Shown one piece after another: positions 11,879-35,074 of a DNA stretch of 64,000 bases (positions within the stretch are counted from its first letter, which is position 1; the number at the start of each line of letters is the position of its first letter). Origin of the DNA: Clostridia bacterium (GTDB taxonomy: Bacteria; Bacillota; Clostridia; UBA1212; DUPL01); contig JBMNIW010000001.1 in assembly GCA_050951325.1 (NCBI GenBank), positions 129,229 to 193,228 of the forward strand, read 5' to 3'. The notes under the pieces were generated by a model, which ran no database searches, had not been told where the DNA came from, and saw only the letters and a list, made by a program, of their open reading frames with translations. The translations under genes and the position numbers were made by a program.

Positions 11879-11879
11879 A

Positions 11880-12104
11880 ATGGAAAAAGTTATTGATTTG
11901 AATAAAACCGTATTTGAATTATGCAATGAGGATCCTGCAATAAAAGACATACTGGCGGATTCAGGTTTTACCGACATAACAAAACCGGGAATGCTTCAAA
12001 CCGCCGGCAGGTTCATGACAATACCAAAAGGAGCAAAGCTTAAGAAAATAGACTTGGAGACCATCAAAAAGAAATTTATTGATTTGGGATATGTAGTAAA
12101 ATAA
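11880..12104 (+). CDS. Small hypothetical protein, possibly DUF1858-like.
   Basis: 74 aa from the ATG at 11880 (AAAGGAG RBS); the ORF-track TTG at 11871 was disregarded. Overlaps the previous gene's stop. Confidence 0.35.
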   Translation: MEKVIDLNKTVFELCNEDPAIKDILADSGFTDITKPGMLQTAGRFMTIPKGAKLKKIDLETIKKKFIDLGYVVK

Positions 12105-18073: not shown

Positions 18074-21000
18074 TCAGCTTCCTTCTCTCTTCTTTCTCCT
18101 GATATAATGCACAGCTGTGCCGGCCACCACCAAAAGTCCCAAAGCAAGAAGCAAAGGCAAAGTGAAAAACTTATCTTTGACATCAGGATTAACAAGTTCC
18201 TCCTGTGCAATTTCTTCTCTGAACAACAAGGATACAACCTGATATTTTGCATGATTCCACGTTTTTACGCCATCCACTTCAACAGGCTCAATTGTTATCC
18301 TGATTCTGTCCTTTCCCTTTGTATACTTTTCTGGAATCTGAAAGGAATCATCAAGCCACTGGTAATATGGGTTGTTGTCTGCATAGTACCACTTCGCCTC
18401 TTCAACCAAAACATCATCCACATATATATTGGCACAGTGTCTTCCAACTTGCTGGGAGGACGTCCTGTTTAAAATAACACCTCTATTGTTTTTATCAATG
18501 TTTACATAAAAAGATATCCTGCCGTTGAAATCAACATGTATCAACCCTTCTTTGCTATCCGTGTTTATACCGTTGGCATAGGCGGAATAAACAGTTTTAG
18601 TGTCATAGCTTCCTGTAACAGTATAATCATGCTTGTCAAGGGATTCTTTGTCCGAAACATCGATTTCGTCCGTAACCACATATGCCTCCATGCTTTCAGG
18701 CAACATGTATAAAAAGATTTGTCCTGAATGACAGCCAAGCCCCTCGTTGGCACCCCCGTGTTCCAGTTCAAATCTAATGGACTGTTTGAAGTAGTATGAA
18801 TCTCCCAGCATGAGCCTCACCATGGACCAATAGGAGTTGGAGTTGTATGCTCCATTGTATCCGCTGAAGGGATTTGCTTGCGGTGGTGTTACGAATCCCC
18901 ACCCGTAGGAAGCCCAGCTTTCAGAGCCGTCACTTTCAATTTCGGGAGACTTGCGTCCATCAATGAATACCCTAACATCACCTTCGCACCCATTCATGAT
19001 ACCGTACCCGGACATAACACCATAAACCATGTGCCCCGAGCCTTCCACATTTGCAATTACACTGTTTTTTCCCTGTACATTCTCTGTTTTGGGATAGTAC
19101 TCAGAGGAGACAAAATAGCCAGTTTTCTGTTTGTCATACCGGCATACCGAACTGGGAGTAAAACCAATCTCAGCCCAATGTATATCAATATCCCTCATAC
19201 TGCTGTTATTGAGCTCCACCACCGCCCTTTCCCAAAAAGGCATTGGGAAGTAATTGTAACACTTAAGATATTCCCCTAGTTTAAGACTCATTCCAAGCAT
19301 GAGGTGATGGTTTTCACAACCAGACAGGTTGTATTGATTGCCAAAGAAAGTTCCAATTGGAGCTGACACATCACTTTCCTCATGTCCATCCCAATATATT
19401 CTAATCCAAAGATCTTTAAGAACACTGTGAGTTACATTCTCACCTGCAAGGTACAATTTAATAGAAGCAATTGAACCTTCAGCTTTTTTGTCAAAAATCT
19501 TTACAGACTCACCCGCATTAATGGTCAAGCCCTTTATTTCCCTGTATTCATTTTTCTCTGAATACTTTGGATCGTGTGTATGGTTTTCAGCCATGTTTTT
19601 AAGCTTTTCAACACCTATCTCCCTTTTATATACGTTATATGTATCATATTTCACATATGTTATATGACCCCAGCCACCTTCACCTTTGGCTTTATCATGC
19701 CCTTCAAGCTTGATATCCGATGTTACCTTGCAATACTTCTTGAACTCCATAGGTATAAAGCTTCTGACAACCCAGATGGGTCCTCTTCCTCCGTCTTCCG
19801 GCCCCTCATAAATATCTGCAAGCGGCTTGACAAACGGCTCTTTCCTACCAAACTCACTCAGCTTTATCTCATACCTGGGCTCTTTTTCATCATCGAAATA
19901 GAATCTGAAAGTAGGTTCCGGACTTGTAGGGTATCTATGCTGTGTGAAATTGTACAAGCAGCCAGGTCCATACGTCTCCATAAGAACCCATTCTCCCTTT
20001 TCGTCCTGATACATGCCCCAGTCCCAGTCTGCATTATCGCCTGCTTTGGAAATACTGCCTTCATAATTCACCATTGCTGAAAAATCCACAAGAGGCAAGG
20101 CCTGTGGATATACAAGTCTTGAAATCCCCCTCAACGGTACTGTTGGTTGAAACTCGTCAGGCTTGCAACCATTTCCTTCAACATGAAACTCCTCAGGCAA
20201 CAAAATCTCAACTTCAATATCCTTCGGCAATATTTTCCGTATCTCGGAAACATCAAGTGGATAATTGTATATAGTTAAATCTTCAATATAGCCTTCATAA
20301 GGAAAAGTTCCATCAATCAAAGCACCAATACTGGCATCCATTACAGAATCGCTGACATGTCCCGAGACAAAGGATCCGGACTTGACTTTTCCATCCACAT
20401 AAAACATTAAAATTTCTCCATCATAAACAACAGCAAAATGATGCTTCTTTCCATCGGCAATGTTAACACCTGAATAGACGGAGGAATTGAAGTTCATCTC
20501 AGGAGCGTAAAAAGCAAGCTCTCCGTTATTGAGCCAGACTTCATAATGCCCGTTTATTTTATCTCCTTTTGCAAATATAACGGCTATACCGTCTTTTTGA
20601 CTCGTTCTAACAACTCCCGTTATTGAAAAGGAAGAACCAATATTGACATCAAAATTGCTGACAATATGTCTTCCATTATCAGTCCTCTTTAAATCAAGGC
20701 CTTCATCTGCCAAAGTAACAAGCATAGTATTCATACCCTCCTCCTGCCATTCCTGTTTCCTTAAATTATACAACTCATCAATCTGGCTTTCTGTCAAAAC
20801 CTCATTGTAAAAGGCCAGATTTCTTAATTTTCCATTGTACTGATAAGTTCCATCATTAAGCCGTTTGAATGTAAGTTTTGCTGGAATATTCGATATTGTC
20901 CCCGATACTTGTAATTCTTTTAAGACTTCACCATTGTCATAAAACTTGAATATGCCATCACCATACACAACGGTAATATTATGCCATTTTCCATCGTTGA

Positions 21001-21328
21001 CATAATGACCTGAGTATATGGCATCACCATTATTCAACTCCGGTGCATAGAATGCAAGCTCACCGTTATAAAGCCAAACCTCAAAATGGCCTTCCGCTTT
21101 ATCATTCTTGGCAAACAGCACCTGGCAGTAATTATCCTGCGGACTTCCTGCCGATGTAGTCTGCATGTCAAAATTAATGGAAAACCTGTCGCCTGGTGTA
21201 TAAACAAAGTCTTCAACATCTTCCAGGCGTTCTTTAAAGAAAAAAGATGTATCAGGCAGAGTTAATGCAACAAACAGTAGTATAAAACACAGTCTTTTTA
21301 TGCAAATGTAAATATGGTCTAAAAACAT
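18074..21328 (-). CDS. C-terminally anchored exoprotein: 2x LamG/concanavalin-like domains plus a DUF2961-like (GH172-like) domain.
   Basis: Two repeats GHFEVWLYNGELAFYAPE / GHYEVWLNNGELAFYAPE. DUF2961-like motifs LWIRIYWDGHE..GTFFGNQYN, GDVRVFIDG, YFKQSIRFELEHGGAN. Tail FFTLPLLLALGLLVVAGTAVHYIRRKKREGS. ATG 21328 used instead of the ORF-track TTG. Confidence 0.7.
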   Translation of the reverse strand: MFLDHIYICIKRLCFILLFVALTLPDTSFFFKERLEDVEDFVYTPGDRFSINFDMQTTSAGSPQDNYCQVLFAKNDKAEGHFEVWLYNGELAFYAPELNNGDAIYSGHYVNDGKWHNITVVYGDGIFKFYDNGEVLKELQVSGTISNIPAKLTFKRLNDGTYQYNGKLRNLAFYNEVLTESQIDELYNLRKQEWQEEGMNTMLVTLADEGLDLKRTDNGRHIVSNFDVNIGSSFSITGVVRTSQKDGIAVIFAKGDKINGHYEVWLNNGELAFYAPEMNFNSSVYSGVNIADGKKHHFAVVYDGEILMFYVDGKVKSGSFVSGHVSDSVMDASIGALIDGTFPYEGYIEDLTIYNYPLDVSEIRKILPKDIEVEILLPEEFHVEGNGCKPDEFQPTVPLRGISRLVYPQALPLVDFSAMVNYEGSISKAGDNADWDWGMYQDEKGEWVLMETYGPGCLYNFTQHRYPTSPEPTFRFYFDDEKEPRYEIKLSEFGRKEPFVKPLADIYEGPEDGGRGPIWVVRSFIPMEFKKYCKVTSDIKLEGHDKAKGEGGWGHITYVKYDTYNVYKREIGVEKLKNMAENHTHDPKYSEKNEYREIKGLTINAGESVKIFDKKAEGSIASIKLYLAGENVTHSVLKDLWIRIYWDGHEESDVSAPIGTFFGNQYNLSGCENHHLMLGMSLKLGEYLKCYNYFPMPFWERAVVELNNSSMRDIDIHWAEIGFTPSSVCRYDKQKTGYFVSSEYYPKTENVQGKNSVIANVEGSGHMVYGVMSGYGIMNGCEGDVRVFIDGRKSPEIESDGSESWASYGWGFVTPPQANPFSGYNGAYNSNSYWSMVRLMLGDSYYFKQSIRFELEHGGANEGLGCHSGQIFLYMLPESMEAYVVTDEIDVSDKESLDKHDYTVTGSYDTKTVYSAYANGINTDSKEGLIHVDFNGRISFYVNIDKNNRGVILNRTSSQQVGRHCANIYVDDVLVEEAKWYYADNNPYYQWLDDSFQIPEKYTKGKDRIRITIEPVEVDGVKTWNHAKYQVVSLLFREEIAQEELVNPDVKDKFFTLPLLLALGLLVVAGTAVHYIRRKKREGS

Positions 21329-21346
21329 GGACAAATCGCTCAAGTA

Positions 21347-23296
21347 CTACTCTTTGGATATGAATAGGACCGCAGCCATTCTCTTTTCAGGGAGAGTGAT
21401 TGTAAAGCCTTCTGCCAAGTCGCTTCCCTTGACACTTTTGGCAGAATTCCTGCCATCCATATCAATAACGGTGTAATATTTGTCCATTTCAACACCTCTA
21501 ACCCTTATCGTTACTGATTCGTCTTCACACCTTTCCTGTCTGAAGGCCTGAATTACACCTTCCTGGGTAGTCGGATTAATGAACATATATACTGTCCACT
21601 TGTCGGTTTCATGCTCTGGATGCCATGGTGTAAGCACATAAAAATCATCGTAGAAATACTTTTTAACCTGCAGCCATTCATTTTGCGCCTGCCTTAACGT
21701 ATCATAATCCAGGTCCTTGTCCTGTGTATATTCAAATCCGTAGTTGAGTATGGGGAGGTAGGAAGCCCTTAAAACATAAATATCAGGCTTTCCGGCGGTC
21801 AATTGCTCTGTAGTTTCCTTGGTTGAAGCTCCACAGCAGGGTATCCACTGCATGAAGGACGTGGTCATGGCAAGTCTCAAACCTGTACTTGTTCTGTCGC
21901 TGTCGCTTCTTAGAAAAGGCACTGCCCTTCTCATGGACTCAAGATCATTGCGGCCTCCTCCACTGGCACAGGAGTCAATGAAAGGAAGCTTGTTTGCTCT
22001 TTTGCAGTAAGTGATAATATTGTCCCACAACCTGTAGTGACCTTGTATGTATAGATTTTCGGTAATTCCGTGTCTTTGTCCTTCTTCTTTGCCATCTCCC
22101 ACAGCCCACAGGCCTGCAGGATCGCAGTTGAAGTCCTCTCTGTACATATGCACGCCATGCTCATCCATCGTGCCAGTTATTCTGTCTGTCAAATATTCAA
22201 CACATTCCGGCAATGCAAGGTTTGCCAACATAACAGGGCCGCCGTTTGCCAATATCCATTCCTTTTTGAATCCATGATTCTTTGAAAGAGCTTCCACATT
22301 CGTTACCCTTTCAGGCTCGAACCACATCATGGTCTTTGCTCCTCGTTCATCTGCGTATTCAATGGACTCTCTGAAACTATCTCCCGGCCATTTTTCCCTA
22401 TCAAGAATCCAGGTACCCACAGTACCCCACCAGTCCGTTGGCACCGAATTATTCTCAGGGTCTACGTACCAGCCCGCATCCACCCATCTAATATCCATAT
22501 GCAGTCCTTCTGCGTAATATTTTTCCATGGAGGGTTTCCAGCTGCCGTAATATTCGGATATGCTGCCATCACTGTTCGGCCTTCCCGTATCAAGAGCAAG
22601 CCAGTTCGTAATCATAGGCTTTACAGGCGGCATATTGTATTTTACAAACCATCTGCGCCACAAATTCATTGCCTTTTCCGTATCTCTAACGATATCCGAC
22701 GACATTGTCAAAACAAGAGGAGTCCTTATCTTCTCACCTGGTTTTAGATATGTACAAAGGTTGTTAACTCCCTTGGCAATGAATCTTGCTCCTTCGTCTT
22801 CATATCGAAAACTTGCCGACCAGGTGCCTGCCCAACCAAGAGCCATGAAGTTCGAACCATTATCCGTCTCCAGCAAAAAGTATGGAAAGACAACATGGGT
22901 GGCTCTCCCCGTTTCCTGTTTGAAACTTGCCTCTTCCTCTTTAAGATTGATTTTATATGGTTTGTACTGGTGTATATGGTCTCCCAGTATTCCTTTCAAT
23001 ACAGGATTTCCACCCTGTATTTTCATGTCAGCACAGAAAAGTTCGGAGAACACTTTTGTATTTGCATCACCCTTGTTCTCAAACCAGACAGTGTAGCCAA
23101 AAGCATTGAATTCCTTGTTGTATTCTGTTTGCACAACAATATCGATGTTGTCCAAAAACCTAAATACATACTCTTCATATACAACATTGTCAACAATACT
23201 TCCTTTTTCCGAAATCAAATCAAAGTCATCAACTCCAAAATATTGATTGCCATCATATTTAAAGCTTGTCTTGACATCCGAAAGTCCCTTTTTCAT
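21347..23296 (-). CDS. GH36-family alpha-galactosidase-like enzyme, cytoplasmic.
   Basis: Motifs MMWFEPERV and DSCASGGGRND. No signal peptide. Start set to ATG 23296, which follows AGGAGGAAGAAAA. Confidence 0.85.
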   Translation of the reverse strand: MKKGLSDVKTSFKYDGNQYFGVDDFDLISEKGSIVDNVVYEEYVFRFLDNIDIVVQTEYNKEFNAFGYTVWFENKGDANTKVFSELFCADMKIQGGNPVLKGILGDHIHQYKPYKINLKEEEASFKQETGRATHVVFPYFLLETDNGSNFMALGWAGTWSASFRYEDEGARFIAKGVNNLCTYLKPGEKIRTPLVLTMSSDIVRDTEKAMNLWRRWFVKYNMPPVKPMITNWLALDTGRPNSDGSISEYYGSWKPSMEKYYAEGLHMDIRWVDAGWYVDPENNSVPTDWWGTVGTWILDREKWPGDSFRESIEYADERGAKTMMWFEPERVTNVEALSKNHGFKKEWILANGGPVMLANLALPECVEYLTDRITGTMDEHGVHMYREDFNCDPAGLWAVGDGKEEGQRHGITENLYIQGHYRLWDNIITYCKRANKLPFIDSCASGGGRNDLESMRRAVPFLRSDSDRTSTGLRLAMTTSFMQWIPCCGASTKETTEQLTAGKPDIYVLRASYLPILNYGFEYTQDKDLDYDTLRQAQNEWLQVKKYFYDDFYVLTPWHPEHETDKWTVYMFINPTTQEGVIQAFRQERCEDESVTIRVRGVEMDKYYTVIDMDGRNSAKSVKGSDLAEGFTITLPEKRMAAVLFISKE

Positions 23297-23494
23297 TTTT
23301 CTTCCTCCTACATTTTGCTGCAGTAATTGTACCATACATGTTCCGAAAAGTATAACGAATATTATGTCCTTTCCAAAATTTATAATGAAATAAAAAGAGG
23401 GGTATGTATAATGTAAATACTGTGATAAAATAAACACAATGGATTAAGTTGCACTGAAAACTGATTTTGATAACCAGAATTATGGAGGGAAACC

Positions 23495-25759
23495 ATGATA
23501 AGAATAATAATTAGACTTACCAGCCTGTTTCTTTTGTCCGCTTGTCTTGCTTCCTTCATTGGGTGCGGGAAGATAACAAGCCCGATAGATAAAAGGAGTA
23601 TTGCATTAATTGACAACAATGTAAAGTATGATCCAGAGGTGATACCAATAGATTGGAGCAAGTTTGATATTAAACCATTGACAGAAGAGCTGGCGGATGG
23701 AACAATATATCTAATCAGAAATGGAACCAAGTACATAGTTAATGACTGGTGGAACAGAGTTTGGAGATTCAGCCTGCAGGATTCAAAAGAATACCTTGCA
23801 ATGACCGGCAGAAACGAACATGACATAAGGCCTTTGACGCATATGGCGCTTACCTTGTCTTCCAGCATTGCCTTAGGAATATATGATGAATCTGTGACAG
23901 GAGTTTCAAAGGAAAATGCCAAAAACATGGCGATGAAACTTACAAAATCCGTTGCAAAAGCTCACTACTCAAATACAGAGGGCGGTTGGGGCAATGCCTG
24001 GCAGAGTGCTTTATGGGCATTCGATGTTGCCCTGGCAGGTTGGCTGTTTTGGGAGGAATTTAGCGAAAAGGATCGTGAATATATTCAAAACTGCGTAGTA
24101 ACGGAAGCAAACAGATTTATTGAATATACAGTGCCCTACTACAGGGATAAAAGTGGGAAAATAAGATTTCCTGGCGACTCAAAGGCTGAAGAAAACGCAT
24201 GGAATTCAAATATTTTGTCAATTGCCTGCGCCATGATGCCAAACCATGAAAACTACAACGCCTGGATGTACAAGAATGTGGAACTTATGCTTTCAGCCTT
24301 CGCAAGGCCAAGTGACGCAGACTCATCAAAAACCGTGAGCGGTTTTGTTCTTAAGTACCTGCTGGAAGGTTCAAATGTAAATGAAGATGGAACTGTAATC
24401 AACCACAACATAGTGCATCCGGATTACCAGGCCACGGTAGCTCTCAATCTTTTGAACGGGATTAGCTTTGCGCTGGCAAATACAAAAATACCTGAAGCTG
24501 TTGTCTTCAATGGAGATGTGATCTATGAGACCTTTGTAAACCTTGACCTTAAAGATATAAACAATAGCATGGCAAGTCAGTACATATACAAAAGGAAGAA
24601 TGACGGAAGCGCATCCCATGAAATAAACTATCCGAATGGAACAGACTGGGGTACAGACAGGCAGATATGTTTCTTCCTGGTGGATGTCTTTGCCGATGCA
24701 CTGAATCTTGACAAAAACTGTAAGATCAAGGCCAAAGACTTTGCACTGGCAAGACTTCCTGTTATGAAGGCAATGCAGGACAGAAATGACAACGGCCAAT
24801 ACTACACCGCCTCAGACAGCGACAAGTACAAGAGTCGTGAGGAATGGGTCATGTGGCATGCTACCTTGTCCTACATGGCATTGTGGGTAAAAGAAAACAA
24901 TCTGTTTGTTTTTGACAAGGAACTGCCCTTAAAACCCGCACCGCTTAATGAAGTTAAGCTTGAGATACCGCATGTCCTGCAATCTGGCACCACAAGCAAG
25001 GCAACTTATTCACTGAATCCAGGATTGGTTATTCTTCCTGATGATTTGAAAATAGCATACTCATCCAGCGACAAGGATATAGTATCCATAACGAATACTG
25101 GTACTGTATATGTAAAAAAGGAAGGAAAGGTCACAATTTCAATAACTGTCACATACAAGGACATAGTTGTTTCAGACAGCGTCGAAATAGAGGTGGTCAA
25201 AGACAAGAAACCCATTTACGACTTTGAGGACCTGCCGCTTGGCAACACCCTTCCTTTGGACTTTAGGTGGAACAATGTGGGCAATGCGGAAGTTGTTCAG
25301 GAAGATAACGGAAACAAAGCACTAAGACTTTCAGGTGCTGGATACAACTACATTTTCATAGGTGATGATTTTGAAGAAGACTTTACTGTAACTTTTAGAT
25401 TTAAGATGGAATCCCACCAGCAAAAAGGAGGGGCGCATCTTCTTTTCCGGGAAGATGACCTTTTGTTTACTGGACGTAATGGATACCAGTTCTGCATAGG
25501 CGACACAATGAATGGAGAATACGGACTTGAGCTTAGAAAACGCGATACCAGTCTTTCCGACAACAAGTATGCCGCCTGCGAGCTTGACTATGAGTGGCAC
25601 GACTTTGAGATAAGCATGGTTGGAAACAAGGTAACATTAAAAATGGATGGAGAGGAAGCCATGACCCATACTCTGACAGGATTTGATAAAGGCTGCATTG
25701 CCATTGCATCTTATCTGGATACCGTACTGTTTGACGATATATTGATAACTCTGCATTAA
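23495..25759 (+). CDS. Lipoprotein: unassigned Trp-rich ~440-aa domain, Big_2 domain and C-terminal DUF1080/LamG-like domain.
   Basis: Lipobox LLSAC. Core motifs NDWWNRVW, HYSNTEGGWGNAWQSALWAFDVALAGWLFW, NHNIVHPDYQAT, YPNGTDWGTDRQICFF, EEWVMWHATLSYMALW. Big_2-like segment LNPGLVILPDDLKIAYSSSDKDIVSI. Confidence 0.7.
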   Translation: MIRIIIRLTSLFLLSACLASFIGCGKITSPIDKRSIALIDNNVKYDPEVIPIDWSKFDIKPLTEELADGTIYLIRNGTKYIVNDWWNRVWRFSLQDSKEYLAMTGRNEHDIRPLTHMALTLSSSIALGIYDESVTGVSKENAKNMAMKLTKSVAKAHYSNTEGGWGNAWQSALWAFDVALAGWLFWEEFSEKDREYIQNCVVTEANRFIEYTVPYYRDKSGKIRFPGDSKAEENAWNSNILSIACAMMPNHENYNAWMYKNVELMLSAFARPSDADSSKTVSGFVLKYLLEGSNVNEDGTVINHNIVHPDYQATVALNLLNGISFALANTKIPEAVVFNGDVIYETFVNLDLKDINNSMASQYIYKRKNDGSASHEINYPNGTDWGTDRQICFFLVDVFADALNLDKNCKIKAKDFALARLPVMKAMQDRNDNGQYYTASDSDKYKSREEWVMWHATLSYMALWVKENNLFVFDKELPLKPAPLNEVKLEIPHVLQSGTTSKATYSLNPGLVILPDDLKIAYSSSDKDIVSITNTGTVYVKKEGKVTISITVTYKDIVVSDSVEIEVVKDKKPIYDFEDLPLGNTLPLDFRWNNVGNAEVVQEDNGNKALRLSGAGYNYIFIGDDFEEDFTVTFRFKMESHQQKGGAHLLFREDDLLFTGRNGYQFCIGDTMNGEYGLELRKRDTSLSDNKYAACELDYEWHDFEISMVGNKVTLKMDGEEAMTHTLTGFDKGCIAIASYLDTVLFDDILITLH

Positions 25760-25761: not shown

Positions 25762-25790
25762 AAGCGGTGGGAAACCCACCGCCTTTTTTA
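25762..25790. terminator. Bidirectional intrinsic terminator.
   Basis: GCGGUGGG-AAA-CCCACCGC followed by CUUUUUUAU. Confidence 0.7.
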
Positions 25791-25792: not shown

Positions 25793-26560
25793 TCATATTG
25801 CAGTCCATCCTCCATCTATAGACAGAAGCTGACCTGTTGTGTAGCTTGATGCATCGGAAGCAAAGTAAACAATTGCACCATCAAGTTCTCCATCTCTTCC
25901 TGGCCTTCCCATGGGACAATACGTTTTTACAACCTGTGCAAAGCCTTCATCATTAAGAACATCATCCGTCATTTCACTGGGGAAGTATGCAGGTCCTATC
26001 GCATTAACCGTGATGTTGTACTTTGCCCACTCATTTGCAAGAGCCTTTGTCATCATTTCAACTCCACCCTTTGAGGTGCAGTATGCACTGATTGGCAGCC
26101 CCGGCATGGCTACAGTGCTGTGTATCGATCCAACATTTATAATCTTTCCATACTTCTTCTCAATCATAACCTTGCCAACCTCGCGGGCAAAATAATATAC
26201 GCCGTTTACATTGACATTCATTACCCACTCCCAAGTATCATCGGACTGGGTTTCCGCAGGTTCCGCAGCGCCAACACCAGCATTGTTCACAAGAATATCT
26301 ATTGTTCCAAAGTAATCAACTATCTCTTTAACCGCAGCCTTGATTTCCTCTACATTGGAGACATCGCATTTTACCGCCAGGCTTTTTACTCCCAATGCTT
26401 CTATCTCCTTCTTCACATCGTTCAGCCTTTCAACTCTCCTTGCAACCAAGGCAACATTTGCGCCCTGTCTTGCCAATGCTTTTGCAAACTGGACTCCCAG
26501 ACCCGAAGAAGCTCCTGTAACGACTGCAACCTTGTTTGTCAAATCAAATAATCCTGCCAT
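25793..26560 (-). CDS. Short-chain dehydrogenase/reductase (KduD / gluconate-5-DH-like).
   Basis: TGASSGLG, NNAG, catalytic YCTSK. RBS AAAAGGAGAG. Confidence 0.9.
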   Translation of the reverse strand: MAGLFDLTNKVAVVTGASSGLGVQFAKALARQGANVALVARRVERLNDVKKEIEALGVKSLAVKCDVSNVEEIKAAVKEIVDYFGTIDILVNNAGVGAAEPAETQSDDTWEWVMNVNVNGVYYFAREVGKVMIEKKYGKIINVGSIHSTVAMPGLPISAYCTSKGGVEMMTKALANEWAKYNITVNAIGPAYFPSEMTDDVLNDEGFAQVVKTYCPMGRPGRDGELDGAIVYFASDASSYTTGQLLSIDGGWTAI

Positions 26561-26824
26561 ATTATACTCTCCTTTTCATAAATATTACTTATATAATTTG
26601 TCCTAACTCCCTAATTTATGCCATCTCCTACAATTGTTATAGGAAATGACTTTGACAACATTTTAACAAAATAATATATCCAGTGCAAATATTTTTAGTG
26701 AAGTTTTTATGAATTCAAAAAGAGTTCCGATTATTACACCCAAATTAATAAATATGGTTTAAAATTGGAAGAGTAACCACTTAATATAGTGTAAAATATT
26801 CGAAACAGCTTATGAGGTGAAACA

Positions 26825-28192
26825 ATGAACAAAAATTCATGTCTGTTATCATTAAAAAATTCAAATGTAGTTCCTATTGACTGGAGCAACTTGAACACCA
26901 AACCTTTAACCGGCGAGATGACAGAAGGAATAATAAATATTATTAACAATGGAAATAAATTTATTGTGAATGACTGGTGGAACAAGGTCTGGAATTTTAA
27001 TGACGATAACCATAAAGAATACCTGACAATGAAAGGTAACAAAGAACATAGCATAAGACCACTAACCCATATGTCACTGGCATTATCCGCAAGCATTGCA
27101 CTAAACATATATGATGAAAATACAACCGGAGTATCAGTAAAAGATGCTAAAGATATGGCTGTAAAGCTGATAAAATCCGTCGCAAAAGCCCATTACTCAA
27201 ACACTCCTGAAGGTTGGGGAAATGCATGGCAAAGTGCGTATTGGGCAGCAGATGTAGCTCTTGCTAGTTGGTTTTTTTGGGATAATTTTAGCAAAGAAGA
27301 TCAAAAATACATTCAAAACTGCATAGTAACCGAAGCCAATAGATTTATTGATTACATTGTCCCCTATTATATGGACAGAAAAGGAAATATACTGTTTCCA
27401 GGCGACTCAAAAGCGGAAGAAAACGCCTGGAATTCCAACATACTTTCTGCAGCTTGCGCCATGATGCCCAATCACGAAAACTATAACTTATGGATGTATA
27501 AGAACATGGAGCTTATACTTTCGGCCTTTGCAAGACCAAGCGATACGTTAAGGGATATCGAAATAAACGGCTTTAGGCTTAATGAATTTCTTAAAGGTTC
27601 CAACATCAATGAAGATGGCACCGTGGTCAACCACAACATCATTCACCCGGATTACCAGGCAACCATGGCCGTAAAACTTCTAAATGGTGTCTACTTTGCC
27701 TTCGGAAAGCAGAAAGTACCGCAAGCAGTCGTTTTCAACGGAGATGTTATATACGAAAGCTTTGTCAACCTTGATTTGAAAGACCTGAACAAGGACATGG
27801 CAGGACAGTATATTTACAAAAGAAAGCATGACGGGAGCGCTTCCCACGAAATAAATTACCCAAATGGTACCGACTGGGGAACCGACAGACAAATATGTTT
27901 CTTCCTTATGGATGTGTATGCAGATATGCTGAAGCTGGATAAAAACTTGCCGGTAAAAGCAAAAGACTTTGCTCTTGCAAGACTGCCCGTGATGAAAGCC
28001 ATGCAAAGCAGAACGGAAAATGGACAGTACTACCTGTCTACAGATAGCGACAGATACAGAAGCCGGGAGGAATGGGTTATGTGGCATGCAATTCACTCCT
28101 ACATGGCTTTATGGGTAGGAGAAAACGGCATGTATAACATTACCAACGAAAGTCCTTTCAAACCAGATATGCCATCACAGGATACACCTTAG
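26825..28192 (+). CDS. Cytoplasmic (signal-less) paralogue of the Trp-rich domain family; domain only.
   Basis: Same motifs (NDWWNKVW, HYSNTPEGWGNAWQSAYWAADVALASWFFW, NHNIIHPDYQAT). Starts MNKNSCLLSL after GAGGTGA. No lipobox or hydrophobic N-terminus. Confidence 0.65.
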   Translation: MNKNSCLLSLKNSNVVPIDWSNLNTKPLTGEMTEGIINIINNGNKFIVNDWWNKVWNFNDDNHKEYLTMKGNKEHSIRPLTHMSLALSASIALNIYDENTTGVSVKDAKDMAVKLIKSVAKAHYSNTPEGWGNAWQSAYWAADVALASWFFWDNFSKEDQKYIQNCIVTEANRFIDYIVPYYMDRKGNILFPGDSKAEENAWNSNILSAACAMMPNHENYNLWMYKNMELILSAFARPSDTLRDIEINGFRLNEFLKGSNINEDGTVVNHNIIHPDYQATMAVKLLNGVYFAFGKQKVPQAVVFNGDVIYESFVNLDLKDLNKDMAGQYIYKRKHDGSASHEINYPNGTDWGTDRQICFFLMDVYADMLKLDKNLPVKAKDFALARLPVMKAMQSRTENGQYYLSTDSDRYRSREEWVMWHAIHSYMALWVGENGMYNITNESPFKPDMPSQDTP

Positions 28193-28272: not shown

Positions 28273-28296
28273 CTGCAGCTCTACACGATATTTTAA

Positions 28297-28350
28297 TAAT
28301 TTGTAGTTATTTGTTGAACACTTCAATCTCACCAAGCTCCTGAAACTCTG
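28297..28350 (-). other. Detached native 3' end (last ~17 codons plus stop) of the GH-like gene 30442..32301, separated from it by the IS200/IS605 insertion.
   Basis: Minus frame encodes ...AGFSHAEFQELGEIEVFNK*. This aligns with the C-terminus of paralogue 6907..9168 (TTGYLFQLAEFEVYKSD). Confidence 0.5.
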
Positions 28351-28351
28351 C

Positions 28352-28600
28352 GTGGCTAAAGCCAGCAGGTTCTAACGTACTTTCCAACTTCTGCACTAAC
28401 CCGAAAGTATAGTGCCACTAATTGGTTTCCGTTAGACTTTTACCACCAATTGTTCCTACGAACAAATTAACGGTAGTTTAGGCTCGTTTCAAAACCCATT
28501 ATATAAACTCATATTACATTCTTTAATGCTTGTCTTACTTCACTATTATTTAATCTTTCAATTTCTTTATCATGTAGTATTTTAAACCTCTCAAAATCTC
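28352..28600 (-). ncRNA. Putative TnpB guide RNA (omegaRNA / reRNA) from the 3' end of tnpB plus the right end.
   Basis: Position only: in characterised IS200/IS605 elements the omegaRNA overlaps the tnpB 3' end and the right end. The 150-nt region 28355-28508 is non-coding. Confidence 0.3.
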
Positions 28601-29966
28601 GTTTACATTCTTCTTGATTAATATTGCATAAATCATCGTTAACGTGCTGTATTAAAAATGCACTATATAAATCCCTTTGTATTTTAATGCCGTTTAAATC
28701 ATTCCAACGTTGACTTAATTTTTTCTTATTATATCTGCAATTCAAATGATTATATTGGCTTGCTTTTACTTCTTTAGTATTAACTTTTATAAGTTTTTCA
28801 CCAAAATATTTTAATTTATTGTCTAGTATGGTTAATAATTTTGCTGGTGCTTTATTGGCTAAACTTTTACCAAACCGTTTCTTACGTTTAAATTTACCTT
28901 TATCGTTCTTTTCAGTTTTCTTGTTTCGTTTCTGCAATCCTTTAAAATTCATTTCTTCAACTTTTATCTTATTACCGAGAGATAATATATAATTACTTAA
29001 TAATTGGTGTTGATATTCTCTTACGTCTGCTTGTTTTCTATATAATTCTCTTAGTTTGTTCTGTGCTTTAATATATCTATTAGATTTGACCCATTTAAGT
29101 TTACCTTTTTTTATTGTACCATCTTCATTAAAATTATCAGGATTATTAGCACGTCTGCTTCTATCCATATACCTCAAAATTCTACGCTTTTCTTTTTCAA
29201 TATTATTTACTCTATCGGCTAATTCTAATAATTTTACATCTACATTTGATACTATTGCTATTGTTTGAGTACCAATATCTAACCCCACTGTACCATTTCC
29301 TATATGTCTTTTAACCTCACCATCTTTATTTATCTTCATAGGAGGTACACCTTTGAATACTATTTGAAGATAATATTTGTATTTACCTTTTATAAATCTA
29401 CGTTTAATTCTACAATAGCATATTTCATCTTTTAGTGCTTGGTACTCATAAGGATTATTATAATCTATTTTTACAGATATTTTTAACCCATTCCATATAA
29501 GAAAACCATCTTTAAATCTTATGCCTGTTTTATTGCTTTTACCTTCAAGAGAATCTAATTCTCCATATTTTTTGAAGTGTACTATTTCACCATCTCCAAA
29601 CAATAAATCTTCAAATGCACTCCATACTCTTGTTGCTATTTTTTGTGCTGTGAAACTATCTATATTTTCCGAGAAATGATGTTGCATTTCTTGTATATCT
29701 TCATGTAGTGAATATTCATTGAGCCTATATTGCTTATACATTTCATTTAATTGCTTATATAATAGTTTCTTCTCTTTTTCATTTGCATTATTAATTTGCT
29801 CCTTTAACTGCCTATATTTTTTAGTTTCAATCATAGATTTATAACGTTTATATGCTTTAGATAATACAGCATTGTATAATTGTCTGCTAATTTCAAAACG
29901 CTTATTTAAAATAGTTTCTTGATACTTTTCAGTTATTAATGGAAATGTTACACAATATCGACTCAT
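28509..29966 (-). CDS. tnpB: TnpB (IS605 OrfB-type RuvC-like, RNA-guided nuclease family), 485 aa.
   Basis: N-terminal YCVTFPLITEKYQETILNKRFEISRQLYN. RuvC-I VGLDIGTQTIAIVS. RuvC-II IKVEEMNFKGL. RuvC-III QRDLYSAFLI. The zinc-finger region has only three Cys (NCRYN ... CNINQEEC). RBS AAAGGTGGTGAATATTT. Confidence 0.85.
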   Translation of the reverse strand: MSRYCVTFPLITEKYQETILNKRFEISRQLYNAVLSKAYKRYKSMIETKKYRQLKEQINNANEKEKKLLYKQLNEMYKQYRLNEYSLHEDIQEMQHHFSENIDSFTAQKIATRVWSAFEDLLFGDGEIVHFKKYGELDSLEGKSNKTGIRFKDGFLIWNGLKISVKIDYNNPYEYQALKDEICYCRIKRRFIKGKYKYYLQIVFKGVPPMKINKDGEVKRHIGNGTVGLDIGTQTIAIVSNVDVKLLELADRVNNIEKEKRRILRYMDRSRRANNPDNFNEDGTIKKGKLKWVKSNRYIKAQNKLRELYRKQADVREYQHQLLSNYILSLGNKIKVEEMNFKGLQKRNKKTEKNDKGKFKRKKRFGKSLANKAPAKLLTILDNKLKYFGEKLIKVNTKEVKASQYNHLNCRYNKKKLSQRWNDLNGIKIQRDLYSAFLIQHVNDDLCNINQEECKRDFERFKILHDKEIERLNNSEVRQALKNVI

Positions 29967-29983
29967 AAATATTCACCACCTTT

Positions 29984-30382
29984 CTATACGTTTTTTTGAT
30001 TTTCTATATATTTTTGTATTGTTTCTTCTGAAATATATCCTATAGTGCAACAAAAATAACTTCGTGTCCAAAGAGAAGGTATTCTACTTCTTAACTCTGG
30101 ATATTTATTTCTTAATATCCTACTACTTGTTCCTTTAAAATATCTTATTAATTCATGCAGTGGTTGTCGTGGGTCAAAACTTATAAACATATGAACATGG
30201 TCGGGCATTATTTCTAATGCTTTTATTTCAACATTCTTTTCTTTTGCAATATCATAAAATATTTGTCTTAAATCTTTTTCAATATTACCAACCAATACTT
30301 TCCTTCTATATTTAGGACAAAACACTATATGATATTGGTTAAGATATACAATACCTTCTTTGTGTATATATTTATCATTCAT
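29984..30382 (-). CDS. tnpA: IS200-type Y1 (HUH) transposase TnpA.
   Basis: 132 aa. HUH motif MPDHVHMFISF. Catalytic Tyr region SYFCCTIGY. RBS TAGGTGGTGAATATCTA. Confidence 0.9.
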   Translation of the reverse strand: MNDKYIHKEGIVYLNQYHIVFCPKYRRKVLVGNIEKDLRQIFYDIAKEKNVEIKALEIMPDHVHMFISFDPRQPLHELIRYFKGTSSRILRNKYPELRSRIPSLWTRSYFCCTIGYISEETIQKYIENQKNV

Positions 30383-30441
30383 TAGATATTCACCACCTAT
30401 CTAATTATAATATAGCATAATATTAGATGGGTGTCAAGTAT

Positions 30442-32301
30442 CTAATAAGCCTTCATCCCAACGACTAAAGTCGTGGGCTTTCGGCTAAGTTTTCTGTAAA
30501 CCCAGCCATACTTGTTTCGTATGAGTTTTGGAACAACAAACTTTATATACCTGGCTTTTGTTTTTTCAATATTAATCTTTAACTCCTTTTCAACAGGCAG
30601 TGCAACCTGCTCATTGGCTATTTCTACCCAGTTATCGTTGCCATCTGACACCAATATCTTAAACCTCTGTGGAAACACGGTACCATCAGCAGGATGTAAT
30701 ACAATCTCGTTAAACTCCTTTTGGGTTCTAAAATCAAACAAAACAAACTGCTCCGTACTTTCCTTTGCTATACCCATATACCCTTTATTATCAAGAGTAG
30801 CATTCTTTTGCCCATCCACAAGATGAACGAGATAGTACCCCTCCTCTCCATAAGAGCTGGATGCGGACATAACTGCATTTTTTAACATGTTAGTCTTGCT
30901 ATCATCCTGCTCTGCTACCTCATCCAAAGTACCTATGACATTGACTCCTTCCCTGAAGACAAACAGCGCCGCTCCACCAGGTTCAAGAGTTTTTGTAAGG
31001 ATGCCTTTCCTTTTGTACATACCTTTTTTGTAGTCAGCCTTTATTTCCTTTCCCGTTTCCTTTGATATCTCTTTAATATAATCGATTCCGTCAATCTCAA
31101 ATTTGACAGTCTGGCTGCGGAGAAAGTCCTTGTTCACAATCATCATGTAGTTTCTTTTTGTATCCCGATGTTCCATGAGGGAAATGATTGAGTATGTATC
31201 CCCTATTGGCTGAATGAACAAATCCTTTGGAACCTCCTTGTAAGTCACACCATCCTGTTTCATCCCCGAATGATATATCTCCAAGGCATCCAGCTTTGCC
31301 AGATGAGAACCTATTGCATGAATTTGCTTGTTTACCTTGCATAAAGGCTCATACAAATCTGTAGGATTTCCTTCATAATCCATTATTGCAAGGGATGCAT
31401 TCCCTTCATTTTTGGGCGGTGTAGCCCAGCAGAAAAACTTAAGCTGCTTGAATCCATAAGCCAGTGCCGCCATCATGTTGTATCTTAGCACATCGATATC
31501 CGGTCGTCTGTAATACCCCGGAATACCCAAAGCCTGCACATAAACTGCCGTGTTAATCCCGTAATCCAGCCCCACCTGCCTCATGATTTCATAATCATTA
31601 AACATGTCAGTCTCGTTGTTGCTTTTGGGATCTTCTCCAAAGGTATATACATCAAACGACAAAATATCTCTTTTATCCTGTAAAAGCATGCAGTAATCTC
31701 TAAGCTGCTTTTCCCAGATCTCATACGACGGATAACCAAAATGAGGCATGAAGTTGACATCGCATATTGCATCCGTGTCATATGTTCGCATTAGTCTGAC
31801 AACCCTTGCAAAGGGGTTGGCATTCTTCGGTTCATCGTAGAGATAATATCCGCCAACCCCTGGCAGGTCCTTGTACTCATCTACAATTCCTTTTATTTCT
31901 TCATCCGTTCTGTTCAAAATGCTTTGGATTCTTGTGTCTCTTACCAATATTTTAAGTCCGTACTTGTCTGCCACTTCCGCCGCTTTCTTGTATCTTTCCT
32001 CTGTATGCTCACTTGAAACAAAAGTCTCACTGAAATAGATATGCGTAACCAAATCAATATCAGCATCCTTCATGTATTTCATTTGCTGTTCCATGTGCTC
32101 ATCATCGTACAAAGGCACAAGGTAGGAAGTAATAATTATATTATCAAGATCCATTGCCCTTGGCCTCTCAACACCTTCTCTTTTACGCATAAAATCCTTC
32201 TCATACATTCTACCAATCACTCCATTTGATACAAGCAGTATTGCTGCGATAAGCAATAAAGCTGCAAATACATACAATACTGCTTTTCCAATCGCTCTCA
32301 T
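30442..32301 (-). CDS. GH-like TIM-barrel protein, paralogue of 6907..9168, with an N-terminal signal-anchor. Its 3' end is rewritten by the IS insertion.
   Basis: GGYYLYDEPKNANPFARVVRLM and downstream blocks collinear with 6907..9168. The final ~17 residues (RKLSRKPTTLVVGMKAY*) are read from the IS left end. ATG 32301 used (ORF track TTG 32307). Confidence 0.7.
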   Translation of the reverse strand: MRAIGKAVLYVFAALLLIAAILLVSNGVIGRMYEKDFMRKREGVERPRAMDLDNIIITSYLVPLYDDEHMEQQMKYMKDADIDLVTHIYFSETFVSSEHTEERYKKAAEVADKYGLKILVRDTRIQSILNRTDEEIKGIVDEYKDLPGVGGYYLYDEPKNANPFARVVRLMRTYDTDAICDVNFMPHFGYPSYEIWEKQLRDYCMLLQDKRDILSFDVYTFGEDPKSNNETDMFNDYEIMRQVGLDYGINTAVYVQALGIPGYYRRPDIDVLRYNMMAALAYGFKQLKFFCWATPPKNEGNASLAIMDYEGNPTDLYEPLCKVNKQIHAIGSHLAKLDALEIYHSGMKQDGVTYKEVPKDLFIQPIGDTYSIISLMEHRDTKRNYMMIVNKDFLRSQTVKFEIDGIDYIKEISKETGKEIKADYKKGMYKRKGILTKTLEPGGAALFVFREGVNVIGTLDEVAEQDDSKTNMLKNAVMSASSSYGEEGYYLVHLVDGQKNATLDNKGYMGIAKESTEQFVLFDFRTQKEFNEIVLHPADGTVFPQRFKILVSDGNDNWVEIANEQVALPVEKELKINIEKTKARYIKFVVPKLIRNKYGWVYRKLSRKPTTLVVGMKAY

Positions 32302-32313
32302 CTTCAATCATCC

Positions 32314-33021
32314 TTACCACGGTTCTGACAGCGGACCATATAAATTGTTCGGCGTCTTCGTGTAATGAATTCTAAGACTAAAAGTTTTGTCTTCCCACAG
32401 CTGATCATCCTTGAAAGCCCTGTGGCTCTCATGGCCAGCAACCCTGTTGAATACACCAATAAAAGTAAAGCTCTCATCATTTAAGATATACAAGAGATAC
32501 TCGCCATCTGGGAGTGGATCAAATGAAAGTTCAACATTTTCCCAGTCATTGAAGTTTACCTTTTTCTCCTCTACCAGTGGCTCGCTTTTCAAGGTATCAT
32601 CGTACGTCCCCTGCCATGCAAAAAGGTAATAGTAGATATGGTAAGGTGGATCCTTGGGAGCACCGTATGTAACAAAGGCCACACTTAACTTGTCAAACTC
32701 TGTAGTGGCAAAGAATTGAGCTGCCATTGAACCAGTAACCTGAGTAGGATCTCCGCTATCATTTTCATCATAGAACAACGCCCAGACTTCTTCATCACTT
32801 GCAATACCTCCTGCGTACTGTCCGGTGCCAGGCGGTATTGTCTCCTTTGGTTCTTGTGTGGGTTCGGAAGTAGGTTCCTCAGTAGGTGCGGTAGTAGGCT
32901 CCTCAGTTGTAACAGGTGTAGGAGTAGCATCACCTTCCGAGGCTTTCTCAATGCAACCTACTAATAATCCTATAGTTATTGCAAAAGTTAAAAATAACAA
33001 TAAAATACATTTATTTGACAT
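32314..33021 (-). CDS. Lipoprotein with a Pro/Thr-rich linker and a beta-domain homologous to the N-terminal domain of the 848-aa GH-like proteins.
   Basis: Lipobox LLVGC. PTPVTTEEPTTAPTEEPTSEPTQEP linker. Motifs AAQFFATTEFDKLSVAF..GEYLLYILNDESF match QFHATTSFNGFNIFF..GEYLLVVNDAYG in 37852..40350. ATG 33021 follows ACAGGAGGCGATTTG. Confidence 0.6.
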   Translation of the reverse strand: MSNKCILLLFLTFAITIGLLVGCIEKASEGDATPTPVTTEEPTTAPTEEPTSEPTQEPKETIPPGTGQYAGGIASDEEVWALFYDENDSGDPTQVTGSMAAQFFATTEFDKLSVAFVTYGAPKDPPYHIYYYLFAWQGTYDDTLKSEPLVEEKKVNFNDWENVELSFDPLPDGEYLLYILNDESFTFIGVFNRVAGHESHRAFKDDQLWEDKTFSLRIHYTKTPNNLYGPLSEPW

Positions 33022-33135
33022 CAAATCGCCTCCTGTATCAAGTTAATTTATTCTAGCATGTAAACTTAGTACGAAATTAACAATCTAGTTGACTTTTTTT
33101 AACCCCTTTAATATATTTATTAACGGGGTGATTGC

Positions 33136-34212
33136 ATGATTACTGTAGATCAGTTAAAGCCATACCTGATGAAAATGACAGATGAAGAGTCTATATACAA
33201 AAAAATATATGAACTAAGGAAGGAACCAGATAAATTCAAAGAGTACATGCTCAATCTGGACAGAAAAGCCTTGCTCAATCAAGGCATATGGCTGCCGAAA
33301 CCCTCAGAAGAAGCAGGAGGCTGGAATTTTCCTGAATACCTAATCAGCAACGAAACCCAAAACATTGATGTTTCCAAACACAACAGGTACAATCCACTTT
33401 TCTATCACGGTCATGATGTCTTTGAAATGATATATATATACGAAGGCAAATGCGAAAACACTGTCGAAGAACTTCCTGGTAAGTTTGTAAAAATGAATAT
33501 GGAAAAGGATGACATATGTATACTTGCACCAGGCATCAAGCACACCATGGGAGTTTACGATGATGACAGTATTGTTATAAATATTATTATCAGGCAATCG
33601 ACATTCAAAAGAATATTTTTCAACTTGCTGACACATAAAAATCCTTTGTCCTTTTTCTTTTACAACACCTTCTACTCTGACAACCCAAACAGCTACATAT
33701 ACTTCAAAACAAAAGATGACCAGGAACTTCACAGGGTCTTTGAAAACCTAATAGTAGAGTGCATAAACAAAAGAGAATATTTCACAGAAAACAGCGAAAA
33801 CCTTCTCAGGTCCGTATTCTTCTATTTACTGCGCAACCATGCCAAGGATGCCATCTTGCCCAACTCCCCCTTTAAAGCACCAATCTTCATTTACGACATC
33901 CTTGCATTTATACAGGAACACTACAATACTGTAACACTTCGTCAGCTTTCATACAAATTCAACTATTCAGAGCAATATCTTTGCAAACTTATAAAAAAGC
34001 ATACTGGTTCCACTTTCAACAGAATCCTTGAAGATATCAGGTTTGCAAAATGTGCCAGCATGTTGGAATCATCAAATCTGCCAATATCCGAAATCAGCAA
34101 ACTAGTACAACATCACCGCACAAGACTTTTAGTATGTCTCCATCTGAAACTTTTTCTTTGTCAGTCTCAACCTTGGCTTCGTAAAGACCGTCTAAATTAC
34201 AGTTTTCAATAA
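33136..34212 (+). CDS. AraC-family regulator (cupin plus HTH) whose final recognition helix is missing or replaced; probably degraded.
   Basis: The first HTH and the start of the second are intact (..FNRILEDIRFAKCASMLESSNLPISEISKLV). The last 36 aa (QHHRTRLLVCLHLKLF...) are antisense to the 3' end of 34094..34858 and do not match the GYSDxxYFSRxFKK consensus. Confidence 0.55.
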   Translation: MITVDQLKPYLMKMTDEESIYKKIYELRKEPDKFKEYMLNLDRKALLNQGIWLPKPSEEAGGWNFPEYLISNETQNIDVSKHNRYNPLFYHGHDVFEMIYIYEGKCENTVEELPGKFVKMNMEKDDICILAPGIKHTMGVYDDDSIVINIIIRQSTFKRIFFNLLTHKNPLSFFFYNTFYSDNPNSYIYFKTKDDQELHRVFENLIVECINKREYFTENSENLLRSVFFYLLRNHAKDAILPNSPFKAPIFIYDILAFIQEHYNTVTLRQLSYKFNYSEQYLCKLIKKHTGSTFNRILEDIRFAKCASMLESSNLPISEISKLVQHHRTRLLVCLHLKLFLCQSQPWLRKDRLNYSFQ

Positions 34213-34858: not shown

Positions 34859-35074
34859 TATAATTCCTCCTTTGAACCTTTTCTACGCCCAGTATATAGC
34901 TGCATATATTACTTGTCGTTTGTGTTTCGGTTGTAGGGAAAACTACTTGTGATAAAAACGGAATTGAATATAATTTGTACGATATTTTTTAACGAATTCC
35001 GATTTATGCACGACTACACTATTTAACAGTTGATATAATTTATAAAGCAACATTAATGTGAAAGGAAAATTGTT

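Follow-up and report, generated by a model that had tools for sequence, protein, structure and literature searches.

Three paralogous genes at the locus

The 64,000-nucleotide (nt) window analysed here, that is, the whole stretch from position 129,229 to 193,228 of contig JBMNIW010000001.1 in assembly GCA_050951325.1 from an uncultured, anaerobic Clostridia bacterium, carries three clustered genes, termed copies A, B and C, whose products share a core of ~440 amino acids (aa). This core very probably represents an unclassified six-hairpin family of carbohydrate-active proteins, where unclassified is meant with respect to Pfam, NCBIfam and the Protein Data Bank (PDB), and a listing in CAZy is possible. 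Copy A (23495..25759, plus strand; 754 aa) starts with a lipoprotein-type signal (aa 1-24, nt 23495-23566; SFIGC), followed by the six-hairpin core (aa ~46-482, nt 23630-24940), a Big_2 domain (PF02368; aa 519-552, nt 25049-25150; 27.1 bits, gathering cut-off 22.8) and a PF06439/DUF1080 domain, a 3-keto-disaccharide hydrolase-like beta-sandwich (aa 606-751, nt 25310-25747; 31.9 bits, gathering cut-off 26.8). Copy B (26825..28192, plus strand; 455 aa) consists of the bare core. Copy C (35075..36784, plus strand; 569 aa) has a lipoprotein signal (aa 1-23; LLFGC) ahead of the core (aa ~44-482, nt 35204-36520), which is followed by a Big_2-like module (aa 515-560, nt 36617-36754).

Within the core, A and B are 70-72% identical, A and C about 50%, and B and C about 53%, and 170+ alignment columns are invariant among the three; judged from this alignment, the likeness is far beyond chance. 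Tryptophan makes up 3.0-3.4% of the core, against a median of 1.4% for the long open reading frames (ORFs) of the window. An earlier note on this DNA, made from the sequence alone, had described three clustered paralogues of a Trp-rich domain of ~440 aa, and the ORFs of 754, 455 and 569 aa with their common core bear this out. The shared sequence blocks that it listed are exact in A and B but degenerate in C (for example, NTWWTQVK, EMARLLAVSIKLNIYDE and YPTGTDWGVDRQLNFF), apart from NHNI.HPDYQ, which is found in A, B and C alike. Similarly, the domain contexts it gave hold for A, with Big_2 and DUF1080, and for B, which stands alone, whereas the Big_2 module claimed for C scores below the cut-off (19.0 versus 22.8 bits) and yet aligns with the Big_2 of A.

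The maximum N-terminal hydropathy over 12 aa is 0.85 in B, against 2.5 in A and 3.2 in C, and B has no hydrophobic stretch at this end. Its reading frame opens at 26816, 3 codons 5' of the ATG, leaving no possible upstream extension, and a ribosome-binding site, GAGGTGA (26810-26816), lies 5 nt upstream of that ATG, in agreement with the claim of a signal-less copy with a good ribosome-binding site. The lipoprotein signals would place A and C at the cell surface, whereas B would be the cytoplasmic form, an intracellular role that we read from its sequence. All three genes are under purifying selection: measured on orthologues from related metagenome-assembled genomes (MAGs), the ratio of nonsynonymous to synonymous substitution rates (dN/dS) is 0.098 for A, 0.109 for B (omega 0.11) and 0.06-0.15 for C. 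Comparisons between the paralogues themselves are uninformative in this respect because dS is saturated.

In the paralogue tree, A and B group together, and the clade that includes C is older. A second lineage, known from metagenomic relatives, contains a long, secreted, DUF1080-bearing protein (P0004) and a short, signal-less one (P0005) that are mutual closest relatives at 78% identity, mirroring the A/B pair of the window (72%). This likeness points to independent duplications or to gene conversion between neighbouring copies. Since P0004 and P0005 repeat the pattern of a long secreted and a short signal-less protein, the pairing of a secreted with a cytoplasmic form is recurrent.

Family assignment

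The core of A, B and C had no match in Pfam-A or NCBIfam, no Pfam match at E<=1 among 52 diverse family members scanned, and no PDB match below E=0.8 when phmmer and a 52-sequence profile were run against 177,635 PDB sequences. Precomputed Pfam annotation was likewise blank on the core among the homologues listed (n = 120). The description of the domain as unassigned was thus correct, even at the level of profiles.

Several candidate families were considered and rejected. Membership of GH88/GH105 (GH, glycoside hydrolase) was rejected because PF07470 gave no match at E<=1 in the 52 members and a profile-profile alignment (hhalign) against GH88 reached a probability of 0.1%. Every family with a solved structure (GH8, GH15, GH76, GH154, AGE, PL5/8/15/17/33/35/39 and others; PL, polysaccharide lyase) was rejected by sequence, as no PDB sequence or profile match was found. 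The idea of a GH174/GH187 endo-fucanase arose from one Parabacteroides locus, with three sulfatases and two GH29 genes around the family gene, together with a numerical coincidence with the published residues D119/E120/E218; it was discarded because those families are beta-sheet folds (PMC12534559), whereas the model of the core is all-alpha. A search of the literature on new GH and PL families found no description matching the core family, and 6 kb of the locus gave no match in a plasmid collection.

Predicted fold and structural neighbours

An AlphaFold2 model of copy B, built on a 52-sequence alignment, has a mean predicted local distance difference test (pLDDT) score of 94.6, a predicted template-modelling score (pTM) of 0.93 and 12-13 long helices. 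Foldseek comparison of the model with the PDB returned almost exclusively six-hairpin or toroid proteins, including lyases, hydrolases, epimerases and isomerases (probability 0.9-1.0), although the matches are weak (E >= 2.8e-3; template-modelling (TM) score 0.26-0.44 by query length and at most 0.53 by target; identity 9-14%). These results support an (alpha/alpha)6 six-hairpin toroid for the core, whose model shows the trait of that superfamily, six inner/outer hairpins formed by twelve helices. The earlier note had suggested an (alpha/alpha)-toroid from composition and length, and this was right given that both the model and its Foldseek neighbours are six-hairpin. The list of neighbours includes the PL39 alginate lyase, dermatan-sulfate (DS) epimerase 1, the PL33 and PL35 glycosaminoglycan (GAG) lyases, AGE-superfamily isomerases and epimerases, GH88, GH8, GH105, GH76 and GH154, and PL17, PL8, PL15 and PL5.

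Each of these groups resembles the core family in part. GH88/GH105 proteins (PF07470) are likewise single-domain (alpha/alpha)6 toroids of about 380-450 aa, their pocket, like the putative one of the core family, is rich in Trp, Arg, His and Asp/Glu, and GH88 gives the best target-normalised TM score of all (3vxd, 0.53); however, there is no sequence relationship, and the two are partners, frequently encoded side by side, rather than paralogues. The toroid lyases and DS-epimerase 1 (PL39 Dp0100, 6jpn; PL33, 8r73; PL35 GAGases; PL17 Alg17c; PL8; DS-epimerase 1, 6hzn) share the helical toroid (E 3e-3 to 3e-2, probability 0.95-1.0), and conserved Asn, His, Tyr and Arg residues occur in the core family too, yet these lyases are proteins of 580-770 aa with an obligatory beta-sandwich, match with TM scores of 0.26-0.43 at 9-14% identity, and include no PDB lyase with a sequence match. 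Members of the AGE superfamily (the sulfoquinovose/mannose isomerase YihS, 2zbl; glucose 2-epimerase, 8h1l) have the same size and fold (TM 0.42-0.47), but they are cytoplasmic, act on free sugars and show no sequence similarity, in contrast to a core family that is mostly secreted with carbohydrate-binding modules (CBMs). Finally, GH154 (8oi4), GH76 and GH8 are alike in fold only (Foldseek E 0.03-0.16, TM 0.34-0.46), sequence similarity to the core family not being detectable. GH154 works in arabinogalactan-protein polysaccharide utilization loci (PULs) beside GH145/PL42 and GH105, the same company that the core family keeps in two of the loci described below (L082 and L018).

Conserved residues and a candidate pocket

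Conservation was computed over 248 full-length domains, with residue numbers referring to copy B. Eleven polar residues are conserved in at least 95% of the domains (R78, H123, Q136, E170, E198, D240, N260, N269, H270, Y277 and E415), and all of them are present in A, B and C, so that conserved catalytic candidates, whose absence would have spoken against a shared activity, exist across the three copies. The other positions at this level are W131, G132, W149, W152, G193, W202, M213, P215, W223, G249, G258 and P346, and W135 is conserved in 85-95%. Copies A and B keep every one of the >=95% residues, and C deviates only at G249K.

In the model, the conserved residues lie where helices H2, H4, H6, H9, H11 and H13 begin, or in loops just after H3, H5, H7 and H12. 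Judged from this helix order, their placement is consistent with a location on one face of the barrel, the site of six-hairpin active sites. The two glutamates E198 and E415, which are separated by ~217 residues, occupy the loops that precede inner helices 6 and 12, an arrangement that seems comparable to that of GH15-type six-hairpin hydrolases. Core domains are mostly acidic, with a median net charge of -11 and 83% of them negative.

Size and distribution of the family

Clustered at 90% identity, the members recovered by a word-indexed search form 217 clusters. When 1.84 billion representatives were searched exhaustively with a profile, 1324 clusters (50% identity) passed E<=1e-3 and 583 of these reached E<=1e-30. 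In GTDB species genomes, 264 stretches encoding the family were confirmed. Carriers occur in Bacteroidota (Bacteroides, Parabacteroides, Alistipes, Odoribacter, Prevotella, Echinicola, Chitinophaga), Verrucomicrobiota (including Akkermansia), Actinomycetota (Streptomyces, Micromonospora, Agromyces, Microbacterium), Bacillota (Paenibacillus, Bacillus relatives, Clostridia) and Armatimonadota, as well as in Saccharibacteria and Parcubacteria of the candidate phyla radiation (CPR). One cluster from gut Prevotella alone holds 1365 member sequences. Proteins near-identical to A, B and C are encoded by MAGs from anaerobic digesters that bear the label Clostridia or Clostridiaceae bacterium, where they are annotated as hypothetical, DUF1080 or Ig-like.

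Most family members bear a signal peptide; a minority, like B, do not. The modules fused to the core are overwhelmingly of carbohydrate-binding or anchoring types (NPCBM, NPCBM_assoc, F5/8C, Ricin-B, CBM6/35/96, LamG, DUF1080, Golvesin_C, CWB2, SLH, dockerin and FIVAR), with few fusions to domains of carbohydrate-active enzymes (CAZymes), namely SASA esterase, GH43 and CE2.

Gene neighbourhoods in other genomes

To describe the neighbourhoods, ORFs were called in 86 fetched loci (numbered with the prefix L; ~78 non-redundant), and neighbours were clustered and recurrent clusters annotated. GH88/GH105 was the most recurrent enzyme partner, lying within 10 kb in about 12-13 of the ~78 non-redundant loci. 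By its matches to 3wiw (E=6e-127) and 1vd5 (E=6e-90), the partner GH88 is a true unsaturated glucuronyl hydrolase. In all five CPR-type loci (L023, L025, L045, L050 and L057; Saccharibacteria and Parcubacteria), a GH88 gene and the family gene form a divergent pair. The CPR-type GH88 is secreted, and these genomes otherwise carry few CAZymes. A same-strand GH88/family pair was found in Phocaeicola excrementipullorum (L015), in company with a sulfatase, two GH3 genes and an M60 mucinase-like peptidase that bears BACON and F5/8C modules. The family gene of this locus (9953-12088) joins the core to a SASA (sialate-O-acetylesterase-like) domain.

GH105-type genes adjoin the family in L058 and L014 and lie nearby in L005 and L030, L005 being an Odoribacter locus in which GH105, GH20, GH89 and the family gene stand in one row as an operon. 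In the SusC/D PULs L082/L083 and L018, a gene fusing BNR_4 to PF07470 (PL42+GH105) lies immediately upstream of the family gene. BNR_4 corresponds to the GH145/PL42 family of Rha-alpha-1,4-GlcA lyases (PMC8377490), and PL42 together with GH105 strips Rha-GlcA caps from arabinogalactan-proteins (PMC8406133). Sulfatases are the next recurrent theme: one lies immediately upstream in L012, others are adjacent in L058 and L015, and the Parabacteroides locus L035 encodes SusC/D, three sulfatases, the family gene and then two GH29 fucosidases.

Among other neighbours, the PF12831 flavoprotein recurs in Paenibacillus ABC-transporter operons, in Agromyces and in Compostibacter, and a short-chain dehydrogenase/reductase (SDR) cluster recurs in seven loci. 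In Bacillus, the family member is one of several CWB2-anchored wall proteins. A Pfam census of the neighbours revealed no single dominant partner beyond GH88/GH105, sulfatase, SusC/D, ABC transporters, SDR and PF12831, and many loci have no informative neighbour.

Organization of the locus in the window

A comparison with three related MAG contigs (L001-L003) gives an ancestral cluster consisting of GH172 and GH36-like genes divergent from A, an opposite-strand SDR gene, B, C, an opposite-strand AraC gene and a PF12831 flavoprotein gene. In the window, the GH36-like (Melibiase) glycosidase gene (21347..23437, minus strand) is divergent from A, and a DUF2961 (GH172)-type gene with Laminin_G modules (18074..21343, minus strand) lies downstream of it; the synteny of both is kept in L001 and L003. 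Only 57 bp separate the GH36-like gene from A. In L001 (4098-4958) and L003 (9000-9860), an AraC-family gene stands between these two, and the window (23448-23472) is without it.

Between A and the convergent SDR gene lies a GC-rich hairpin, GCGGTGGG-AAA-CCCACCGC (25764..25782), with T-runs on both sides. It is terminator-like and may serve as a bidirectional terminator shared by the two genes. Given this strong hairpin at the end of A, the three copies look like separate transcription units. The SDR (25793..26560, minus strand) falls in the gluconate-5-dehydrogenase/KduD clade, scoring 273 bits against NF006070 (cut-off 279) and 231 bits for KduD, and its position between A and B is kept in L001 and L002. 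Beyond C, a full AraC-family regulator gene (cupin sensor plus HTH_18; 36781..37638, minus strand) is convergent with C, overlaps its end and is kept next to it in L002. The suggestion that two AraC genes flank the copies was therefore half right, in that this regulator abuts C, while the second candidate, the ORF at 33136-34212, has a sub-threshold HTH_18 score (27.8 versus 33.6) and neither gene flanks A or B.

A 6.85-kb segment between B and C (28277..35130) holds a TnpB-like gene, two F5/8C proteins and this AraC-like ORF. In L002, B is directly followed by C, and since the whole segment is missing there, it looks like a recent insertion. The TnpB-like gene (28509-29966, minus strand) is of the RNA-guided endonuclease type (NF040570, E=3e-22) and sits in a patch of 30% GC. 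A 621-aa protein (30442-32307, minus strand) is recognised only by its C-terminal F5/8C module, its N-terminal ~480 aa having no family or PDB match. The AraC-like ORF (33136-34212, plus strand) overlaps a small F5/8C ORF (34094-34858, minus strand) by 119 nt; probably one start or end was mis-called, or the AraC-like gene is degenerate.

The PF12831 FAD-dependent oxidoreductase gene (40328..42043, plus strand) directly follows the AraC gene in L002. In the window, a gene for an 848-aa protein (37804-40350, plus strand) is inserted between them. This protein had no sequence match in Pfam, NCBIfam or the PDB, and it has 1616 homologues, some of them fused to CBM6. Its AlphaFold2 model (pLDDT 89) shows a central TIM barrel, flanking beta-sandwiches and a long N-terminal helix, the barrel being distantly similar to GH99/GH71 (Foldseek E 1e-7, target-normalised TM ~0.5), and it is a putative second unclassified CAZyme family.

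Further away, two sulfatases adjoin a radical-SAM/SPASM protein (ORFs 53696-54805, plus strand; 55094-58024 and 58052-59587, minus strand) that looks like an anaerobic sulfatase-maturating enzyme; one of the sulfatases is 976 aa long and contains additional domains. The set supports a sulfated-glycan lifestyle of the organism. A glycyl-radical enzyme (PFL-like plus Gly_radical), an activase and a Zn-alcohol dehydrogenase are encoded at 2357-6490 (minus strand); the glycyl-radical enzyme scores far below all NCBIfam equivalog cut-offs (420 against 1100 for HypD, 399 against 1050 for CutC).

Proposed function and alternative readings

We infer, at somewhat less than an even chance, that A, B and C are glycoside hydrolases acting on acidic or sulfated glycans, whereas hydrolysis overall, a neutral-linkage variant included, is about evenly balanced against the remaining readings. 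The acidic substrate is suggested by the fact that the family adjoins GH88/GH105 unsaturated-uronyl hydrolases and sulfatases. Hydrolysis is favoured because the core is toroid-only and about the size of GH88 and GH125, because E198 and E415 are invariant and their placement seems to match that of GH15-type enzymes, because a domain that is net acidic in most members would be unusual for enzymes that grip polyanions, and because PULs with PL42+GH105 already contain a lyase. Toroid polysaccharide lyases, in turn, typically carry a C-terminal beta-sandwich as an integral part. Hydrolase is thus more likely than lyase, although all of these pointers are weak.

Under the proposed mechanism, the three copies, which are functional paralogues, would cleave glycosidic bonds of glycans, and the conserved residues would line a pocket where the inner helices have their N-termini. 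Glu198 and Glu415 would act as acid and base, Arg78, His123 and His270 may bind an acidic group, and W131, W149, W152, W202, W223, W135 and Y277 could stack on sugar rings. Substrates would probably be complex glycans bearing uronic acids and/or sulfate. One possibility is an exo-uronidase that removes a saturated uronic acid, or the adjoining residue, beyond the reach of GH88/GH105, whose action is confined to unsaturated ends; this version would explain the partners seen in CPR, in PULs of the arabinogalactan-protein type and in the GH105-GH20-GH89 operon, as well as the KduD-like SDR. At the cell, the lipoproteins A and C, with their extra beta-sandwich binding modules, may attack the polymer outside, and the cytoplasmic B may finish imported oligosaccharides. 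The KduD/gluconate-5-dehydrogenase-like SDR would then feed released sugar acids into central metabolism, with the AraC regulator presumably controlling the set.

A number of observations weigh against hydrolysis of acidic glycans by this family. The window encodes no GH88/GH105, and its sulfatases are 17-20 kb or more from the nearest copy. Context is heterogeneous elsewhere too, about 85% of the loci being without GH88/GH105. The gene of the most abundant gut Prevotella member lies between a P-type ATPase and CorA, among housekeeping genes. The core family may also already stand in CAZy. Furthermore, the lowest Foldseek E-values belong to lyases and an epimerase rather than to hydrolases, the invariant Asn269-His270 dyad with Tyr277 and Arg78 would equally suit a beta-elimination apparatus, and in CPR genomes the sole partner is a secreted GH88, which needs an unsaturated substrate of which a lyase would be the simplest supplier.

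The last three points lead to a serious rival, less probable than hydrolysis: a new poly- or oligosaccharide lyase made of the toroid only, in which His270 and Tyr277 would act as base and acid, Asn269 and Arg78 would neutralise the uronate carboxylate, and 4,5-unsaturated products would pass to GH88/GH105. In its favour, the lowest Foldseek E-values belong to PL39, PL33, PL35 and DS-epimerase 1, whose mechanism resembles that of a lyase, and PL17, PL8, PL15 and PL5 are matched as well. The strict GH88 pairing in the five CPR-type genomes would then be a self-sufficient two-gene module, no other partner being visible, and both the rank of GH88/GH105 as the most recurrent enzyme neighbour and the KduD-like SDR adjacent to the copies in the window would fit. 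Nevertheless, TM scores to the lyases are low and the beta-sandwich that they carry is missing from the family, and a second lyase is not required where PL42 is already fused to GH105 (L082 and L018). The spacing from the Asn-His dyad to the Tyr is 7 residues, against ~50 in PL5 and PL17. In addition, many invariant carboxylates (E170, E198, D240 and E415) in a net-acidic protein are atypical of metal-independent uronate lyases.

More doubtful is hydrolysis of a neutral linkage, such as a galactoside, arabinoside, fucoside or hexosaminide, within glycans of mucin, arabinogalactan-protein or the microbial cell wall. Here the association with GH88/GH105 and sulfatases would merely reflect joint degradation by many enzymes. 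The fused modules are mostly binders of galactose/GalNAc type (F5/8C=CBM32, NPCBM=CBM51, Ricin-B=CBM13), the neighbours in the window include the GH36-like and GH172 genes and several F5/8C proteins, and those elsewhere include GH29, GH20, GH89, GH3 and M60. A Trp-rich pocket and an acidic surface would suit neutral sugars, and the CWB2 and SLH fusions in Bacillus suggest a cell-envelope polymer. This reading, however, leaves unexplained both the strict GH88 pairing in small CPR genomes and the PULs that combine PL42, GH105 and the family, and the invariant Arg and His suggest, weakly, an anionic ligand.

Very improbable is the absence of any bond cleavage, be it a six-hairpin isomerase, epimerase or hydratase (AGE/YihS-, DS-epimerase- or linalool-dehydratase-like) or a non-catalytic binding protein: the best structural matches include YihS (2zbl), glucose 2-epimerase (8h1l) and DS-epimerase (TM 0.42-0.47), and the spacing of 196 residues between Arg78 and His274 seems similar to the Arg-His spacing of cellobiose 2-epimerase, but secretion, fusions to CBMs, cell-wall anchors and dockerin, and SusC/D PULs mark depolymerising enzymes rather than cytoplasmic sugar isomerases, and more than 20 residues conserved in at least 95% of the domains argue against a mere binder.

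Implications

The core is a large unclassified family inside a well-known enzyme fold, one that behaves like a six-hairpin CAZyme and fails the tests for Pfam, NCBIfam, PDB, GH88-profile and GH174/GH187-fold membership. It amounts to at least 1,300 sequence clusters of a single domain without a name, structure or known activity, including members from gut genera, soil actinomycetes, Paenibacillus and CPR. Because the family sits in PULs beside sulfatases and unsaturated-uronyl hydrolases, it is a concrete candidate for a step so far missing from acidic-glycan degradation, the polymers in question being of GAG-like, arabinogalactan-protein, sulfated algal or microbial cell-wall type. Once its activity is assigned, CAZy would gain a family, the annotation of many gut and environmental genomes would improve, and the two-gene module conserved in CPR would be explained. 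Considering that new six-hairpin CAZyme families turn up regularly, we regard it as a tractable target rather than a conceptual surprise.

A further-reaching possibility, to which we give little credence, is that the family is the founding example of toroid-only polysaccharide lyases (or uronidases) with a novel catalytic apparatus, which together with GH88 would form a minimal two-gene secreted module. If true, this module would let the ultra-small bacteria of CPR (Saccharibacteria and Parcubacteria) feed on uronic-acid polymers of the host envelope, for instance teichuronic acids, and the family would be an overlooked, abundant player in the breakdown of sulfated host and plant glycans by gut Prevotella, Bacteroides and Akkermansia.

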